The notes below the pieces were generated by a model. It was given only the letters and a program-made list of their open reading frames with translations, had not been told where the DNA came from and did not search any database. The position numbers were made by a program, and so were the translations under genes. A stretch of DNA of 64,000 nt from an uncultured Gammaproteobacteria bacterium (GTDB taxonomy: Bacteria; Patescibacteriota; Microgenomatia; UBA1406; GWC2-37-13): contig CAZIYS010000001.1 of the NCBI GenBank assembly GCA_964543535.1, positions 195,159 through 259,158 on the forward strand. Reading direction: 5' to 3'. This document shows, piece after piece, positions 44,999 to 54,815 of this stretch. Positions within the stretch are counted from its first letter, which is position 1; each line of letters begins with the position of its first letter.

Positions 44999-45048
44999 TT
45001 TATAAGAAGAATTTTATAAGAAGAAGATAGTATAATCAAGCTATCATT

Positions 45049-46164
45049 ATGCAAAAAGTACATCGTGTCGTTCTGATTGATGTTATTGACCCTCATCTGA
45101 ACAAAGAAGATGCTCTAAAAAATTTACAGGAATTAAAATCATTGGTGGCCACCTACAACGGGATTGATGTTGTCAATATTATCCAACACCGAACTCGTCC
45201 GGATAAAGCCACTTTTATTGGATCAGGAAAAGTTGTGGAATTAGCCCAAATCGTTGCTGAAAAACAAATCGACATTGTTGTTGTTAATGCGATTGTTAAC
45301 CCAGGCGTTTTATTTAACTTGACGCAAAACCTTTGGGATATTAACCCGAAAATCCAGGTCTGGGATAGGGTCGACTTAATCTTAAATATTTTTGATAAAC
45401 ATGCCTATACGACCGAGGCAAAACTACAAATAGAAATTGCCCGGATGCATCATATGGGTCCGAGAATTTATGGACTGGGTGAAACTTATTTTTCTCGTCA
45501 AGGCGGTGGCACAAACACAAAAGGTCAAGGAGAAACTAATATTGAACTGATGAAACGCCACTGGCGCGAGCAGATAAAAAAGAAAAAGGATCAATTAGAA
45601 AAAATTTCCAGCCAACATCTAACTCAACTTGAACGAAGAAAAACCAATAATATTACTGCTATTTCAATCGTTGGCTATACCAATGCCGGTAAAACATCGC
45701 TATTTAATCTCTTAACAAAAAAACAGAAAGCTGTTAAAGATGCCTTGTTTGTAACCCTTGACAGCGTCACCGGTAAATTCTACTTTCCAGTGCAAAAAAA
45801 AGAAGCCACCATTTCCGATACAATCGGCTTTATCAAAGGCCTGCCTTCATCCCTGATCGATTCTTTTAAGTCAACCTTAATGGAATCAATTTATGCCGAT
45901 CTTTTACTTCATATCATTGACATTAGCGATCCGGAAATGAGCGAAAAAATTGAAATAGTGGAAAAAATTTTAAAAGAACTTCAAGTCCGTACCAAAAAAA
46001 CTATCTTTGTCTTTAATAAAATTGACGCTTTTACCGGAGACGGCAAGAAAATTTTAAAAGAGATAGATGAAAAATATTCCCAGTTCTCACCTCAGTTTAT
46101 TTCCGCCACCACCGACTACGGAATTGAAAAACTAAAAAAAGCAGTCGAAAATGTTCTTTTTTAG
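45049..46164 (+). CDS. hflX: GTPase HflX
   Basis: HflX N-domain, G1 GYTNAGKTSLFN, DTIGF, NKID. Confidence 0.9.
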   Translation: MQKVHRVVLIDVIDPHLNKEDALKNLQELKSLVATYNGIDVVNIIQHRTRPDKATFIGSGKVVELAQIVAEKQIDIVVVNAIVNPGVLFNLTQNLWDINPKIQVWDRVDLILNIFDKHAYTTEAKLQIEIARMHHMGPRIYGLGETYFSRQGGGTNTKGQGETNIELMKRHWREQIKKKKDQLEKISSQHLTQLERRKTNNITAISIVGYTNAGKTSLFNLLTKKQKAVKDALFVTLDSVTGKFYFPVQKKEATISDTIGFIKGLPSSLIDSFKSTLMESIYADLLLHIIDISDPEMSEKIEIVEKILKELQVRTKKTIFVFNKIDAFTGDGKKILKEIDEKYSQFSPQFISATTDYGIEKLKKAVENVLF

Positions 46165-50533: not shown

Positions 50534-51598
50534 TTATGCTGGTAATATTTCCTGTAATTTAAATGGTAAATGTGAAGTCCTGTTTCTTTCTAAACCTAAA
50601 GCATCCATTCCTCCAACAAGACCAAAAAGAAAGTCTATATTTTTAAAAACAACCGAACCAGGAATATCTGTTCCATTTATACTTATAGTATCCTCTCCTG
50701 GCTTTATACACATATCAATTCCATACAAATCTGTCAAGAAATGTCTAATTTGAATACCTAATTGATTAAATGTTTCATTATTTAACATTTTTCCTTTTAA
50801 ATAAGTCTCATATAATTGAAGTCCAAAGACTCTTCTATAATAAGCTGAGTCCGGAAATATTCTGTAGGATAAGTTTCCACTATTTCTTATGTTCCAATAC
50901 GGACGAAATTTGGTAATCTCCAAATCGTGACTTTCATCCTCATGATTAACAACTACAGGAGGGTTATAAAATAAACTAACATCTTTTCCCAAAATACTTA
51001 ATGGCAAAGCAAAAACACTAATCATTATTTGATCAAGATCCGGATGTCTAAATTCTCCGTGAACCCCAAACGCATCTAAAACCGATGGAAATACAGGTAA
51101 CCCTGGAACAATTCTTTCTTGAGGTAAAATAGCCGTCGCCAAGGGGCCGGACGATAGAACACTTTCTCTCTCTTTTAGATATGCGGGGTCATTATATAGG
51201 GCCTCCAAACGATCTTGACCAGCGTTTTCAATAATTCCATCGCGACTAATTTGTCGAATTCTTTCCGGAGTTGGAAATCTTGTACTACGAAAAAGCACTA
51301 TATAATGTTCATTTATTGGAAATTGCATCCTTTGTAAAAATGCTAATTCTTTCATGCCGGGAATTACCTTTAACAAGGGATCTCGCAAGACATCGTCGTC
51401 AATAAGCACTTCAGCTAAATTAATTTCGTCCAATAAATTACTATCTAAATTATCTTCAGAAAATAATCTTTGCCTAGTTGTTTCTGGAAGAGGGGCCCTA
51501 CTGAATTTTGTCACAGCCGGTTCAGTGGTTATCTTTTTCCACTTTCGGACTAATTCTCCTCGAACTAAATGTGACTGGAACTCATTTTTATTTGTCAT
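50534..51598 (-). CDS. hypothetical protein, no family recognised
   Basis: 354-aa uninterrupted ORF with no TM helix and no motif I can place. Slightly GC-richer than the flanks by eye. Confidence 0.5.
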   Translation of the reverse strand: MTNKNEFQSHLVRGELVRKWKKITTEPAVTKFSRAPLPETTRQRLFSEDNLDSNLLDEINLAEVLIDDDVLRDPLLKVIPGMKELAFLQRMQFPINEHYIVLFRSTRFPTPERIRQISRDGIIENAGQDRLEALYNDPAYLKERESVLSSGPLATAILPQERIVPGLPVFPSVLDAFGVHGEFRHPDLDQIMISVFALPLSILGKDVSLFYNPPVVVNHEDESHDLEITKFRPYWNIRNSGNLSYRIFPDSAYYRRVFGLQLYETYLKGKMLNNETFNQLGIQIRHFLTDLYGIDMCIKPGEDTISINGTDIPGSVVFKNIDFLFGLVGGMDALGLERNRTSHLPFKLQEILPA

Positions 51599-51753
51599 AA
51601 GATAATAAAATTTAATTCTGTATACGTGAATAATAACTTATAGCATACCATAAAGAGGCCATTTTACATCTTAGTTAGGGATTTAAAATAAACTAACTAA
51701 TATTTTAAAAAATATTTTATACAATAACATCCATTATCATTTTCAAAAAAAAT

Positions 51754-51894
51754 ATGAAACTCATTAGGAAACTTTTTGGGATTGTTATTCTTTTTTCAAT
51801 TGCTGCAACAATTTTCGGGCTTGGATACATTGGTTATATTCCCGTCATTGCTAATTTATTAGGTACGAACAAACCGCACAATAACCCACCCTAA
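51754..51894 (+). pseudogene. 46-codon ORF that looks like the N-terminus of a truncated membrane-anchored protein
   Basis: MKLIRKLFGIVILFSIAATIFGLGYIGYIPVIANLLGTNKP, then an abrupt change in sequence character and a stop. Confidence 0.3.
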
Positions 51895-51908
51895 GGGTGT
51901 CTGAGACT

Positions 51909-52010
51909 ACATCCTCCTAATCTTACCTCAAGATAACACCCTCCAATTCTTACTTCTCGCTTCCATCCACCACGTCTTACTTCAAGATTGCTATCCATCA
52001 CGTTTAAGAG
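51909..52010. repeat. four degenerate ~27-bp tandem repeats
   Basis: Units start at 51909, 51936, 51963 and 51991. Shared core (c)atcc-N-cc-N4-5-cttac(c/t)tc. Confidence 0.6.
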
Positions 52011-52021
52011 TCAATTACAAC

Positions 52022-52095
52022 CCTGTACCAGAAAACCTTCGGTTTACGGTACAGGATTTAGGGACTGTAATCCAGACTGAGTCGGGAACAGTCCC
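52022..52095. other. two adjacent stable hairpins (8-bp GC-rich stems)
   Basis: cctgtacc...ggtacagg (52022-52055) and gggactgt...acagtccc (52061-52095). Confidence 0.35.
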
Positions 52096-52098
52096 TAC

Positions 52099-52146
52099 AA
52101 AAAAACGCGCCGGGCCCTTCGATAAGTTCTCCGGACTCGGCTGCGT
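52099..52146 (-). terminator. intrinsic-terminator-like structure on the minus strand
   Basis: Minus strand: a GC-rich interrupted stem (cgcagccg...cggcgcg) followed by TTTTTTT. Confidence 0.4.
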
Positions 52147-52340
52147 ATGAGTTTGTTAGTAGCTATTAACGATTAGCTATTAACTATTTGAAACTTCTTT
52201 ATCCGCACCATAAACCTTGAGAATAGTTTTCATCTTCGAAAACTATCAGACGATAAGTTCTCATAGTTTTTTTTAGATTTATGATTAAAGTTTGATCAGT
52301 CTTTAATCAAAACTTATAATTAAATTTATCCTATAATTAA

Positions 52341-52369
52341 ACATTAAAGGATATATTTTAGTTTGTCAA
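52341..52369 (-). promoter_or_regulatory. sigma70-like promoter on the minus strand within the ORF-free region
   Basis: TTGACA (52364-52369), 17 nt, TAATGT (52341-52346). Confidence 0.4.
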
Positions 52370-52411
52370 GTGCATTTTATAATCAACAAATTTTTATCTT
52401 AAATGCACGAA

Positions 52412-52484
52412 GACCCTGAAGACTCGCCCCTCGGGAGTGCGAGGCTGAAAGCCTCCAGACCGAGGTAAGAGTTCTTCATGGGTC
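52412..52484. other. compact GC-rich multi-stem element downstream of the TrmH-like gene
   Basis: Outer stem gaccctgaaga/tcttca-t-gggtc encloses ctcgc...gcgag and gaggc-tgaaa-gcctc. gggtcaagg is repeated at 52480 and 52514. Confidence 0.3.
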
Positions 52485-52563
52485 AAGGAGTTAGAAATTA
52501 ACCGTTATACTGGGGTCAAGGTACTATCAAGAATCGGCGGGGAGAAATAACCCTATAGCTATT

Positions 52564-53205
52564 TTAAAAAGGATTGATTACCCAATAGCTAACAATGGCG
52601 GCTGACACGATAACATTCAATGACTTGTTAATTCCCCACATTGGGATCTCAACGATTTTATCACATAATTTTAGCGTCTCCTCAGTCACTCCATATGATT
52701 CATTGCCAAGAATTAATGCTAAAGGCAAAGAATAATCGGCTTTTTGATAAGGAATTGAGTTTTTGGCCTGTTCGACGGCAATAATAGAAATAGGAACATG
52801 GAAGTTGGGTTTTGATGCGGGTTTGGAAGATTGAAGCTGGAAATTAGAATTTCTTCTATCTTCAATTTCTATCTTCTTAACTCGTTTCCAAACCTTCCTT
52901 CTATTCTCCATTTTTCTAAGTTCTTCAATCGCCTCCCCGGCCGTCTTCTTATATTCCCATGGCACAACTTTATAAGTTCCAATTGAAGCCTTTTTAATTC
53001 TCGAATTCGGCGGTACTTCCATCTCCCCGCAAAGATAAATTTTTTCAATCGCCAGAGCGTCGGCCAAACGAAACAATCCGCCGATATTATAGGTATCATA
53101 GATATTCTCCAAAATAAAGTAGATCGGCCGCCGCTTGATTAACTTTAGTTTGTCCGCAACTTCTTTTTCATCAACATCACGAAGTTCTTTAGCGTTAAGT
53201 TTCAT
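52564..53205 (-). CDS. SpoU/TrmH-family RNA 2'-O-methyltransferase with an internal basic insertion
   Basis: NIGGLFR, LILGNESYGV and IPMWGINKSLNV motifs. A ~40-aa Lys/Arg-rich segment lies between them. Confidence 0.75.
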   Translation of the reverse strand: MKLNAKELRDVDEKEVADKLKLIKRRPIYFILENIYDTYNIGGLFRLADALAIEKIYLCGEMEVPPNSRIKKASIGTYKVVPWEYKKTAGEAIEELRKMENRRKVWKRVKKIEIEDRRNSNFQLQSSKPASKPNFHVPISIIAVEQAKNSIPYQKADYSLPLALILGNESYGVTEETLKLCDKIVEIPMWGINKSLNVIVSAAIVSYWVINPF

Positions 53206-53979: not shown

Positions 53980-54145
53980 TTTCTTACTCCATTTAATCAT
54001 TTCGTCATTTGTTCATTTTTTCATTTATTTGATTATTAGATTATTTGTTTATTTGATTATTTATTAGTCCTGTATTTCTTCGAAATAGGTCTATGTGTTT
54101 TCCTTGTGCATAAAAAAACCTATCTTTTCCCAATCAGCACTATAA

Positions 54146-54174
54146 TTGATTTTTGACTCTTGATGTGCTATACT
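54146..54174 (+). promoter_or_regulatory. strong sigma70-like promoter with extended -10
   Basis: TTGATT, 17 nt, (TGc)TATACT. Confidence 0.55.
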
Positions 54175-54180
54175 ATGGGG

Positions 54181-54486
54181 CATATGAAAACAGTTTTGCT
54201 GAGACTGGTTTCGTTGATACCCAAGGAGAGGATTGTAATTAAAAAACTACGATCTTGGCCTTGGGTTTTTGCGTATAGAAGCTTGATCTCAGGGATCGAG
54301 GGATAGGAGAATGAATCAGCACCTATCCCCCGTTTCTTGGGGTTAAAATCTCAAGTTTTTCCCGCCGAAGGGGCGGGACCAAAAAGGAAGTTGTGACAAT
54401 TAGCCGTCACAAATCTTCCTTAATGGTAGATCGTGACGGAAATGAGTTGTTCATAAGCTAGAACAACTATTGAAAATATTTTTTTC
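54181..54486 (+). ncRNA. candidate structured non-coding RNA (~300 nt), class unknown
   Basis: Downstream of the promoter lie at least 5 stable hairpins: 54220-54265, 54300-54329, 54361-54377, 54386-54419, 54445-54468. A T-run follows at 54479-54485. No ORF with an SD. Confidence 0.35.
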
Positions 54487-54815
54487 CGTCGCACGTTTAC
54501 AAAATGGGTTTACCCGAACAAATTTTTTCTCGGGAATCAATAATAGCTATTGAAGAACCGAAAATTTCGACGGGTATTTTACTCGAAAGAGTAAATCAGG
54601 TTACTATATTTTATATGGGCATTTTATGGGCACATGGGAAACATGGCAGATTTGAACACGAACCTGAAAATCATCATCCTTTCTTTCCGAAAGAAATAAT
54701 TCTAGAAATAGGATTATTTTAAGTAGGGAAAGATTGGCTTGCACTTTGGCGCTAACTAATCGTTAGCCTCAGAGAGCAAGTCAATCTAAAAATCAGAAAA
54801 AGGAGAAAATGAAAA

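Follow-up and report, generated by a model that had tools for sequence, protein, structure and literature searches.

We show that the stretch from position 51599 to 52563 of a 64,000-nucleotide (nt) DNA window (contig CAZIYS010000001.1, positions 195,159 to 259,158) holds a 21-codon open reading frame (ORF) that, by its codon-level signature, is a protein-coding small gene, and that directly upstream of the predicted promoter of this tiny gene lies a non-autonomous mobile hairpin repeat, which we call P0+B after its leading hairpin, P0, and its larger, three-helix hairpin, B. Together with debris of a decayed gene and of other small repeats (Table 1), these parts probably make the stretch a mosaic left by gene decay and by the traffic of small selfish repeats around one real gene. 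As the initial annotation had stated, the stretch contains no ORF of 60 amino acids (aa) or more; the ORF-free interval on both strands, 51606-52563, measures 958 nt and is the largest such gap in the window, where the median distance between ORFs is 50 nt (n = 53) and the gaps second and third in size measure 542 nt (at its very end) and 524 nt. The same annotation had implied a single unusual non-coding RNA locus, a view that we find unsupported given how unrelated the parts are.

Conservation among relatives is modular. In a DNA search of 40 relatives, matches were obtained in 23 of 41 genomes, host included, and they fall into separate blocks with differing distributions: 52092-52380 has one copy per genome, 52404-52491 occurs in up to several copies per genome at unrelated places, and 51724-51875 is confined to two genomes. 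Short pieces of 51880-52110 recur inside the host genome. That the conservation splits into independent modules, of which one is the remnant of a protein gene and another is multicopy and mobile, speaks against the idea that all 960 bp form a single long and structured RNA gene or ribozyme of a novel kind, perhaps standing in for an RNase P RNA or a signal recognition particle (SRP) RNA that was not found. What could recommend this idea is that the region is hairpin-rich and that the models for RNase P type A (RF00010; best 5.6 bits) and for small SRP RNA (RF00169) find nothing in the host genome, which is 97% complete (1.0 Mb in 23 contigs); RF00011, RF01854, protein-only RNase P, Ffh and RnpA were not searched for. 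One relative, G009, has neither the small ORF nor a match to R1, our covariance model of B, at this locus, and therefore neither module is essential. We discount a single long RNA almost entirely. A gene-free kilobase readily suggests a new RNA machine when the genome measures about 1 Mb; the present one would instead be a record of gene loss and repeat traffic.

Searches for known RNAs agree with the earlier impression that the stretch fits no known family, and no Rfam assignment overturned it. At gathering scores, Rfam 15 finds three tRNAs in the window, none of them in the gap, and a permissive scan of the gap gives six matches, all far under their gathering scores, the best with E = 0.23 (18.6 bits against a gathering score of 43). 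Rfam also gave no match at B-element copies in the seven relatives' loci scanned. ARAGORN detects no tmRNA in the gap; the tmRNA of the host genome lies on another contig, C8 (97.8 bits). The stretch is not an assembly join either, a possibility raised at the outset, because independent contigs span the gap without a single difference from the window (run X1 over 51200-53000 and run X2 over 51200-52789, both of which may be the source sample). In run X3 the region comes in two pieces, with the break at 52290-52309.

The tiny gene was concealed by the 60-aa filter. Across the 27 loci compared, an ORF of 17-24 aa is intact in 24, and in 22 of these it is exactly 21 aa long. Residues M1, F9, W19 and G21 of the peptide are invariant and N13 is kept in more than 90% of copies; the N-terminal eight residues are variable, and the C-terminal 13 follow the pattern F-E-[DE]-x-N-[FY]-x-x-G-[LIM]-W-[SC]-G. 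Codons under these residues vary silently: Phe9 is encoded by TTC in 11 copies and by TTT in 11, Ser20 by TCT (7), TCA (5), AGC (6) or AGT (1), with Cys in three copies, and Gly17, Leu18 and Gly21 each use several synonymous codons. Silent codon variation, the use of both serine codon families, a fixed length and a conserved C-terminal motif indicate selection on the peptide.

The ORF is part of what appears to be a self-contained minus-strand unit of about 235 nt, running from about 52334 to about 52099, with promoter, leader, ORF and terminator. A minus-strand promoter-to-terminator unit had been proposed before, and both its folding and its conservation from promoter to terminator in all eight aligned genus copies indicate that it is real. 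In the eight copies, the -35 box TTGACA is invariant and the -10 box keeps the form TAnnnT; the ATG, an invariant TGG...GGATAA, and the 3' arm and T run of the terminator, likewise invariant, are also shared. Simple scans passed over both ends of the unit: the -10 box matches the consensus at only three of six positions, and the terminator loop is longer than 8 nt. The terminator stem is present in both the minimum-free-energy and the centroid structures, the whole unit folds better than shuffles (z = -3.2), and the arms of the leader hairpin covary in the eight-copy alignment as judged by eye, with no pair count run (TGATTAAAG/CTTTAATCA, TGATTAAAAG/CTTTTAATCA, GATTTAAAA/TTTTAAATC). The leader carries no Shine-Dalgarno sequence and the ORF has T at -1, an arrangement that is normal here because host ORFs rarely carry such a sequence: among those of at least 200 aa, a Shine-Dalgarno-like motif is found at 58 of 643, T stands at -1 in 68%, and the upstream sequence is A/T-rich. 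We infer that the unit is transcribed and its ORF translated.

Some smaller features accompany the unit. Two of the eight aligned copies, those of the window and of G022, carry an insert between stop codon and terminator, and the repeats previously noticed near 52150-52180 are resolved there by Tandem Repeats Finder as a tandem repeat (Table 1). The duplicated 11-12-mer of the initial annotation, CGATAAGTTCTC, does occur twice, at 52120 in the terminator loop and at 52251 in codons 2-5; most relatives have not retained it, and we attribute it to chance or to an old duplication. Antisense to the leader hairpin and pointing towards P0+B lies a plus-strand promoter-like site, TTGATC-17-TATAAT (52292-52320; a consensus match only, at 10 of 12 positions). 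Several host promoters end within a few bases of an ATG, which suggests leaderless or Shine-Dalgarno-independent initiation.

A profile built from 24 of the peptides and searched against the 223 genomes of the order matches 30 of them, namely 26 of 43 genus genomes (host included) and four genomes of three other genera (G182, G210, G128 and G201), whose copies keep promoter, leader, ORF and even terminator sequence. The gene is single-copy in all but two of the 30. It is dispensable, since G009 lacks the ORF, deleted there from between leader and terminator. The small ORF is preceded, on the same strand, by a gene for a SpoU-family 2'-O-methyltransferase in 21 of 24 loci; in the other genera, this gene is 1.3 kb away in one case and absent within 2.5 kb in another. 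In the window, the NCBIfam models RlmB and TrmH both match the SpoU-family protein below their cut-offs. Our searches found no specific relative of known function for the peptide, and the tiny gene represents a new, lineage-restricted family of small proteins without known relative. Judging from its sequence, the product is most likely a small cytoplasmic protein, restricted to this lineage, and the conserved C-terminal 13 residues are most likely its working part. Because the tiny gene steadily sits behind the SpoU gene, a first guess at a partner would be the methyltransferase or its RNA substrate.

We also considered that the unit might be a non-coding small RNA in which the 21-codon frame is incidental or, as a variant, that it encodes a leader or arrest peptide controlling the terminator behind it. 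Consistent with such readings, more of the leader hairpin and of the terminator sequence is conserved than a terminator would need, in other genera as well, and the stop codon is TAA in all 22 ORFs of 21 aa. The peptide, moreover, is best conserved over the 13 residues that precede the stop, which is the pattern of nascent-peptide arrest sequences. A frame without meaning, however, would be hard to reconcile with silent variation at third positions, with two serine codon families at one residue and with a constant ORF length, all of which point to selection on the peptide. The spacer between stop codon and terminator varies by at least 35 nt through insertions, which argues against coupling of the two, and, because a convergent gene follows the terminator in G055 and G009, read-through would have nothing to regulate there. 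In G055 the unit converges on an intact gene for a 267-aa protein, and therefore it is not a leader for a downstream gene. These points argue against an attenuator or leader peptide, and we consider the incidental frame and its arrest-peptide variant together very unlikely.

The tiny gene, read as protein-coding, falls in with a known class. This class comprises bacterial small proteins of at most 50 aa together with dual-function small RNAs, and, like its unannotated members, the gene is a stand-alone unit with a very short conserved ORF that escapes gene callers. Known examples of bacterial small proteins are dominated by hydrophobic membrane peptides and type I toxins; unlike these, the present peptide is hydrophilic and acidic. 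It adds a conserved and unannotated family to a lineage of whose biology very little is known, in the form of a complete promoter-to-terminator unit, which eases testing. Annotation of these genomes could include the small ORF and mask the P0+B family.

P0+B is defined in the first place by its structure. The GC-rich multi-stem element that had been pointed out next to the methyltransferase gene is real and corresponds to B, which covaries strongly. A consensus from 12 copies in eight genomes forms three helices with compensatory changes in 13 of 23 pairs. Over 32 copies, 16 of the 23 pairs show compensatory changes, 96.3% of cells are paired compared with 79.7% in shuffles (33-47% in controls with slid partners), and the covariation score is 0.413 compared with 0.131, none of 500 shuffles reaching the observed values. 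The window copy scores 97.1 bits with R1. In P0, the stem sequence differs wholly between copies, with the 5' arm directly following GTCAAG and the 3' arm reaching up to the CG ahead of B. At the hrcA locus of four genomes, orthologous copies compensate in P0 (AGGAAT/ATTCCT, AGCAAT/ATTGCT, AGCATT/AATGCT, AGTATT/AATGCT), and at the SpoU locus both P0 and B carry compensating differences between the window and G020.

Several functional assignments for B were rejected. It is not a divergent RNase P or SRP RNA, being multicopy, patchy and absent from many complete relatives, and the hammerhead-like core of the window copy can be set aside, as its CUGAAGA is not conserved in other copies. It is not the terminator of the SpoU gene, given that elsewhere B does not lie behind a co-directional gene. 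A riboswitch or other 5' cis-regulator is contradicted by the unrelated nature of the adjoining genes (primase, UvrD, hydrolase, NUDIX, DUF7489, 23S intervening-sequence protein); for at least one of these genes, a promoter of its own intervenes between B and its start codon.

That P0+B moves is documented at three loci, dnaG, hrcA and one further, where empty sites in the host face filled sites in relatives. The pattern is ...TCAAG|flank when empty and ...TCAAG[P0+B...GTCAAG]flank when filled; at dnaG, the host reads ...TTGTCAAG|CGTTTTTAGG and G002 reads ...TTGTCAAG[P0+B...GGTCAAG]CGTTTTTGGG. Since these filled and empty sites show precise insertions, P0+B is a non-autonomous mobile repeat, and P0 travels with B, because one P0 type is shared by L068 and L057, two loci that are unrelated. 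As for the SpoU locus, G018, G019, G008 and G022 were rejected as empty sites there: they keep the promoter-side arm and loop of P0 and are deletion derivatives. The window holds the trace of an earlier arrival as well, as the remnant of about 20 nt beside P0+B resembles the 3' ends of the subfamily of L069, L059 and L072, and G020 has a similar B remnant at the same locus.

The places of insertion appear to follow a sharp rule. In 25 of 35 copies, CAAG is followed by a P0 with a stem of at least 5 bp that ends before the CG of B (hereafter the strict arrangement), with GTCAAG in 22 copies and TCAAG in 24; 22 of the 35 also end in G[GA]TCAAG. In 21 of the 25 strict copies, the CAAG lies within a promoter-like site on the other strand, TTGA[CA][AT]-N15-19-TAnnnT, so that the element stands directly upstream of a -35 box. 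Genes next to P0+B include dinB (with a LexA-type box), hrcA (with a CIRCE-type repeat), uvrD, dnaG, tuf, and genes for a NUDIX protein and an AP endonuclease, which we read as a sample of strong or regulated promoters and not as a regulon. R1 finds one full B copy in the host genome, B in 20 of 43 genus genomes (up to seven per genome), and B in 23 of 151 sampled genomes of the order, belonging to 10 of 68 genera (up to eight per genome). A scan for the exact B pattern found it at 13 places in species-representative genomes, at 36 in metagenome contigs and at none in viral contigs; the named records that carry the repeat are titled Candidatus Roizmanbacteria or Woesebacteria, and five bear the title uncultured Gammaproteobacteria.

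An alternative to a selfish repeat is that P0+B is a structured RNA with a function for the host that spreads like a repeat, either as a small RNA or by terminating or insulating divergent or read-through transcription at promoters. The very strong covariation, the compensatory changes among orthologous hrcA and SpoU copies and the constant position beside promoters (21 of 25 strict copies) would all fit such a function, as would a T run 6-10 nt past the hairpin in several copies, and in the window the plus-strand promoter-like site at 52292-52320 could drive transcription through the element. Yet copy numbers range from none to eight in a patchy distribution, with none in many complete genus genomes; insertions are precise and at unrelated loci; copies without P0 occur in operon spacers and at gene ends; the neighbouring genes share no function; and the stems carry no strand signal. 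Moreover, selection likewise maintains the hairpins of known HUH-mobilised repeats. A host-functional RNA is therefore unlikely in our judgement, and we favour a selfish repeat.

As to how this selfish repeat might move, we propose that a HUH-type nuclease acts in trans and cuts after CAAG, as the architecture of the ends suggests, and that selection would keep the hairpins for the recognition of the single-stranded form by this putative mobilising enzyme. In the window, the insertion of P0+B would have occurred directly after GTCAAG, which is complementary to the -35 box of the tiny gene; the stub of the older copy lies alongside. Landing just upstream of -35 boxes may let copies persist, because neither promoter nor gene would be destroyed. 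We infer, rather than observe, which strand folds and what effect, if any, P0+B has on the adjoining promoters.

P0+B belongs among the selfish hairpin repeats, a group that includes REP/REPIN, the miniatures of IS200/IS605 and IS91, and the Rickettsia palindromic elements; what is new is that it consists of two hairpins and stands exactly upstream of -35 boxes. REP/REPIN sequences and IS200/IS605 miniatures are intergenic hairpin repeats that insert 3' of a short specific sequence. Like REP/REPIN-RAYT systems and IS200/IS605 miniatures such as PATEs, P0+B is a short non-autonomous intergenic hairpin repeat with compensatory change that inserts 3' of a short specific sequence and has no inverted terminal repeats. 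The absence of terminal inverted repeats also sets it apart from classical miniature inverted-repeat transposable elements, which carry such repeats along with a target duplication of fixed length. RAYT-like Y1 genes, as expected of REP-associated systems, are present in these genomes; in contrast to those systems, however, neither P0 nor B flanks any of the 10 Y1 genes examined, and P0 and B are unlike each other. With the Rickettsia palindromic elements, P0+B shares the character of a selfish palindromic repeat that survives in a reduced genome where little harm is done, but it has no sequence similarity to them and, in the form with P0, is tied to -35 boxes instead of coding frames.

The closest parallel in end layout is with the IS91 family. 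In the portions of two sources on which this comparison draws (PMC13181058, PMC3189936), IS91-family elements and their miniatures are described as targeting CTTG or GTTC without duplication, as having subterminal palindromes, and as moving with short ends, of which about 170 bp suffice for IS91 transposition. Set against these partial descriptions, P0+B, read on the other strand, begins with CTTG (CTTGAC) beside a long imperfect palindrome (B, 73 nt), and the end that abuts the target has one subterminal palindrome (P0) and then CTTG, or GTTC in one copy (L029). As with the tetranucleotide target there described, CAAG stands at the P0 end in 25 of 35 copies and GAAC in one. Palindromes at both ends, with a related tetranucleotide at the far end, are likewise found in P0+B, as in the part of the description concerned (PMC13181058). 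The three comparisons of filled and empty sites show no duplication except for (G)TCAAG; with the element itself ending in this sequence, a duplication of 4-5 bp would be indistinguishable. Unlike the IS91 elements so described, P0+B is accompanied by no Y2 transposase over the cut-off in five of five B-bearing genomes, its preferred target is longer, (T)GTCAAG, and its target-side palindrome varies in sequence from copy to copy; the likeness is one of end layout.

A number of observations weigh against parts of our reading. Concerning mobilisation, Y2 (IS91-type, PF04986) is found over cut-off in none of 43 genus genomes and in three of 223 genomes of the order (E <=0.001), these three being fragmented bins; all the genomes are metagenome-assembled, so that absence is unproven. 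Among the five B-richest genomes tested, none has Y2 over cut-off, and one has a sub-threshold match of 13.3 bits. Y1 (PF01797) is over cut-off in 10 of 10 genomes, with two genes in the host, 5-10 in four B-rich and one or two in five B-free genomes, and at every one of the 10 Y1 loci examined the flanking hairpins are the locus's own and not B or P0. The sole B near an examined Y1 gene is the SpoU-locus copy of G002, about 1 kb away, and the two host Y1 proteins score 70.3 and 40.2 bits, compared with a cut-off of 80 for the NCBIfam REP-associated tyrosine transposase. Concerning the insertion rule, 10 of 35 copies lack the strict arrangement, and it is seen in just 14 of the 32 distinct copies of a second, independent set defined by pattern. 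Of the other copies in that set, at least 10 start with CTTG/CCTG-(C/T)CCC and several end in GGGGTTA.., as read from their flanks and not counted by script; these starts and ends of P0-less copies can pair. At least one P0-less copy lies in an operon spacer, again as read from the flanks, and a copy in G002 abuts the stop codon of the neighbouring gene. Three P0-less copies (L029, L065 and L178) have flanking direct repeats of 10-13 nt, and L066 has one of 8 nt; there, the simple model fails. Concerning structure, the stems contain 15 G-T and 13 A-C mismatches in 736 cells, which gives no strand call, and an assignment to the plus strand from G-U pairs was dropped after this count. Compensatory change among orthologous copies is selection on structure after insertion and would also fit a host function. 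Finally, the linkage of the tiny gene with the SpoU gene may just reflect shared descent within one family.

It is tempting to go further and to see in P0+B a promoter-homing element of a new kind, in which a single-strand nuclease recognises the two hairpins, inserts them behind GTCAAG and replaces upstream regions with an AT-rich loop, and to see separately in the 21-aa peptide and its structured mRNA a dual-function regulator tied to an RNA methyltransferase. This combined proposal is tentative, and we hold it to be rather doubtful. If true, P0+B would colonise the upstream edge of strong promoters, such as the heat-shock promoter of hrcA with its CIRCE-like repeat, LexA-box promoters, and those of dnaG, of tuf and of the tiny gene, and would be a bacterial analogue of promoter-targeting retrotransposons that has IS91-like end chemistry without an IS91-type transposase. 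In any case the rule of insertion directly upstream of -35 boxes is unusually sharp. Should it stem from the specificity of an enzyme instead of survivorship, it would show how selfish DNA persists in a packed genome and could provide a natural tool for promoter tagging.

In the course of this work we also noted other repeats and promoters related to these subjects. RAYT-like Y1 genes of 211-234 aa (L109-L118, from G002, G015, G099, G037, contig C11 of G000, G013 and G022) are flanked on both sides by direct copies of their own hairpin, which differs from gene to gene, so that several independent IS200-like or REP systems coexist in genomes of 1 Mb. A motif, TTTTGTAGGTTATAA(C/G), recurs between genes near Y1 genes (upstream in L113, L115 and L117, downstream in L109 and L118) and elsewhere (right flank of L060). 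A distant B-like variant scoring 20-30 bits with R1 occurs at host C5:19219-19330 (L018), on contig C3 of G016 (L076) and on contig C122 of G019 (L067); its leading hairpin, TAGAGTCTGT...ACAGACTCTA, stands directly behind intrinsic terminators, and comparison of L076 with host C3:11380-11520 shows a precise insertion. A recurrent promoter-like module consists of 4-6 CTT (or TAC) triplets followed directly by TTGTCAAG, which on the other strand gives TTGACA, a spacer of AAG repeats and a -10 box; it is found in the host at C2 ~45620, C3 ~50400 and C11 ~18900 and in relatives at L057, L060, L068, L075, L077 and L115, and several B copies sit inside it. Promoters with a GAAC-N4-GTTC-type (LexA-like) box precede a dinB-like gene and another gene, and a TTAGCA-N15-TGCTAA (CIRCE-like) repeat overlaps the hrcA promoter (L030, L054, L069, L074 and host C2 ~19110 for the former; L049, L053, L061, L071 and host C4 ~80520 for the latter).

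Table 1. Features of the ORF-free stretch and its two neighbouring genes, in window coordinates.
Feature	Position	Strand	Remarks
354-aa ORF	50534-51598	minus	Left neighbour of the gap; no Pfam or NCBIfam match
AT-rich divergent control region	51599-51753		Between the 354-aa ORF and the gene remnant
Gene remnant (46-aa ORF)	51754-51894	plus	Start of the gene for a 267-aa, N-terminally hydrophobic protein; homology 51754-51882
Short hairpin repeat CACCC-TAA-GGGTG plus tail	51884-51909 (hairpin 51887-51899)		Where the homology to the 267-aa protein ends
Three tandem 27-bp units	51910-51988	plus	25-nt core, 72-80% alike; direct-repeat family D1
Hairpin pair I6 and I16	52019-52058 (I6), 52059-52097 (I16)		16-nt arms, 81% (I6); 10 bp, perfect (I16); small repeat families
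Factor-independent terminator (predicted)	52099-52145	minus	GC-rich stem, then 7-T run
14-nt tandem repeat	52160-52188		2.1 copies; within the ~35-nt insert between stop codon and terminator
21-codon ORF and TAA stop	52199-52264	minus	MRTYRLIVFEDENYSQGLWCG; hidden by the 60-aa cut-off
5' leader (predicted)	52265-52334	minus	~70 nt; 9-bp hairpin 52282-52309, folds in the computed structure
Promoter (predicted, sigma-70-type)	52341-52369	minus	-35 TTGACA (52369-52364), 17-nt spacer, -10 TAATGT (52346-52341)
GTCAAG target	52365-52370	plus	Complement of the tiny gene's -35 box
P0+B element	52371-52487	plus	117 nt, two hairpins, directly 3' of GTCAAG
P0, leading hairpin	52371-52407	plus	TGCATTT/AAATGCA, 7 bp, 23-nt AT-rich loop
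B	52408-52487	plus	Three-helix hairpin 52412-52484, CGAA before, AAG after; ends ...GGGTCAAG
3'-terminal remnant of an earlier B copy	52499-52521	plus	...CCGTTATACTGGGGTCAAGG; other subfamily; direct repeat D3
SpoU-family 2'-O-methyltransferase gene	52564-53205	minus	Right neighbour of the gap; Pfam PF00588, E = 4e-29

The left third of the stretch records the loss of a gene. The truncated gene start that the initial annotation had recognised is genuine: in a tblastn search with the intact 267-aa protein of G009 (L025:1746-2549), the window matches residues 1-43 only, at 74% identity. A degraded pseudogene with detectable protein homology, which that annotation had allowed for, thus accounts for 51754-51882 but not for the remainder. 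The gene is full length in G055 (L088; all 267 residues by tblastn) and in G009, where this ORF and the small-gene unit end at one shared terminator, and a shorter remnant in G002 covers residues 1-26; the intact protein belongs to no Pfam or NCBIfam family. In the window, the gene start would have been cut off where the short hairpin repeat begins, with the 27-bp half-units and two hairpins left as debris beyond. The stop codon of the remnant is the loop of the CACCC-TAA-GGGTG hairpin, of which exact copies of 16-19 nt lie on host contigs C14, C4, C10 and C6 and which was scored as terminator-like on the minus strand.

The debris consists of pieces found elsewhere in the host genome. The tandem repeats of about 27 bp exist, in three copies and not the four counted earlier; they are repeated 5' halves of a repeat of about 70 nt, which has fuller copies elsewhere in the host genome, with full-length relatives at C5 ~45056 and C3 ~78091, both near tRNA genes, and which is not in Rfam. 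The hairpins described with 8-bp stems are real as well, although their stems measure otherwise (16-nt arms at 81%, a perfect 10 bp, and 7 bp). The pair I6-I16 has copies at host C3:60857-60899 (84%) and C5:19219-19275 (86%), and I16 matches the leading hairpin of the B-like variant found behind terminators. The ~70-nt repeat looks structured, CCTCC..TTCTTACTTCTCGCC...GGCTC.AAGAGCGA...GGAGG, and adjoins tRNA genes at C5 ~45040-45110 and C3 ~78070-78140 (L022 and L023); in G015, a copy lies just upstream of the small-ORF unit (L151).

Beyond these parts, a minus-strand promoter-like site, TTCACG-17-TATTAT (51630-51602; a consensus match only), abuts the start of the 354-aa ORF. A second ORF-free gap of 524 nt lies at 53980-54503 of the window, just past a DUF11 gene, and extends to 1036 nt if ORFs shorter than 100 aa are ignored.

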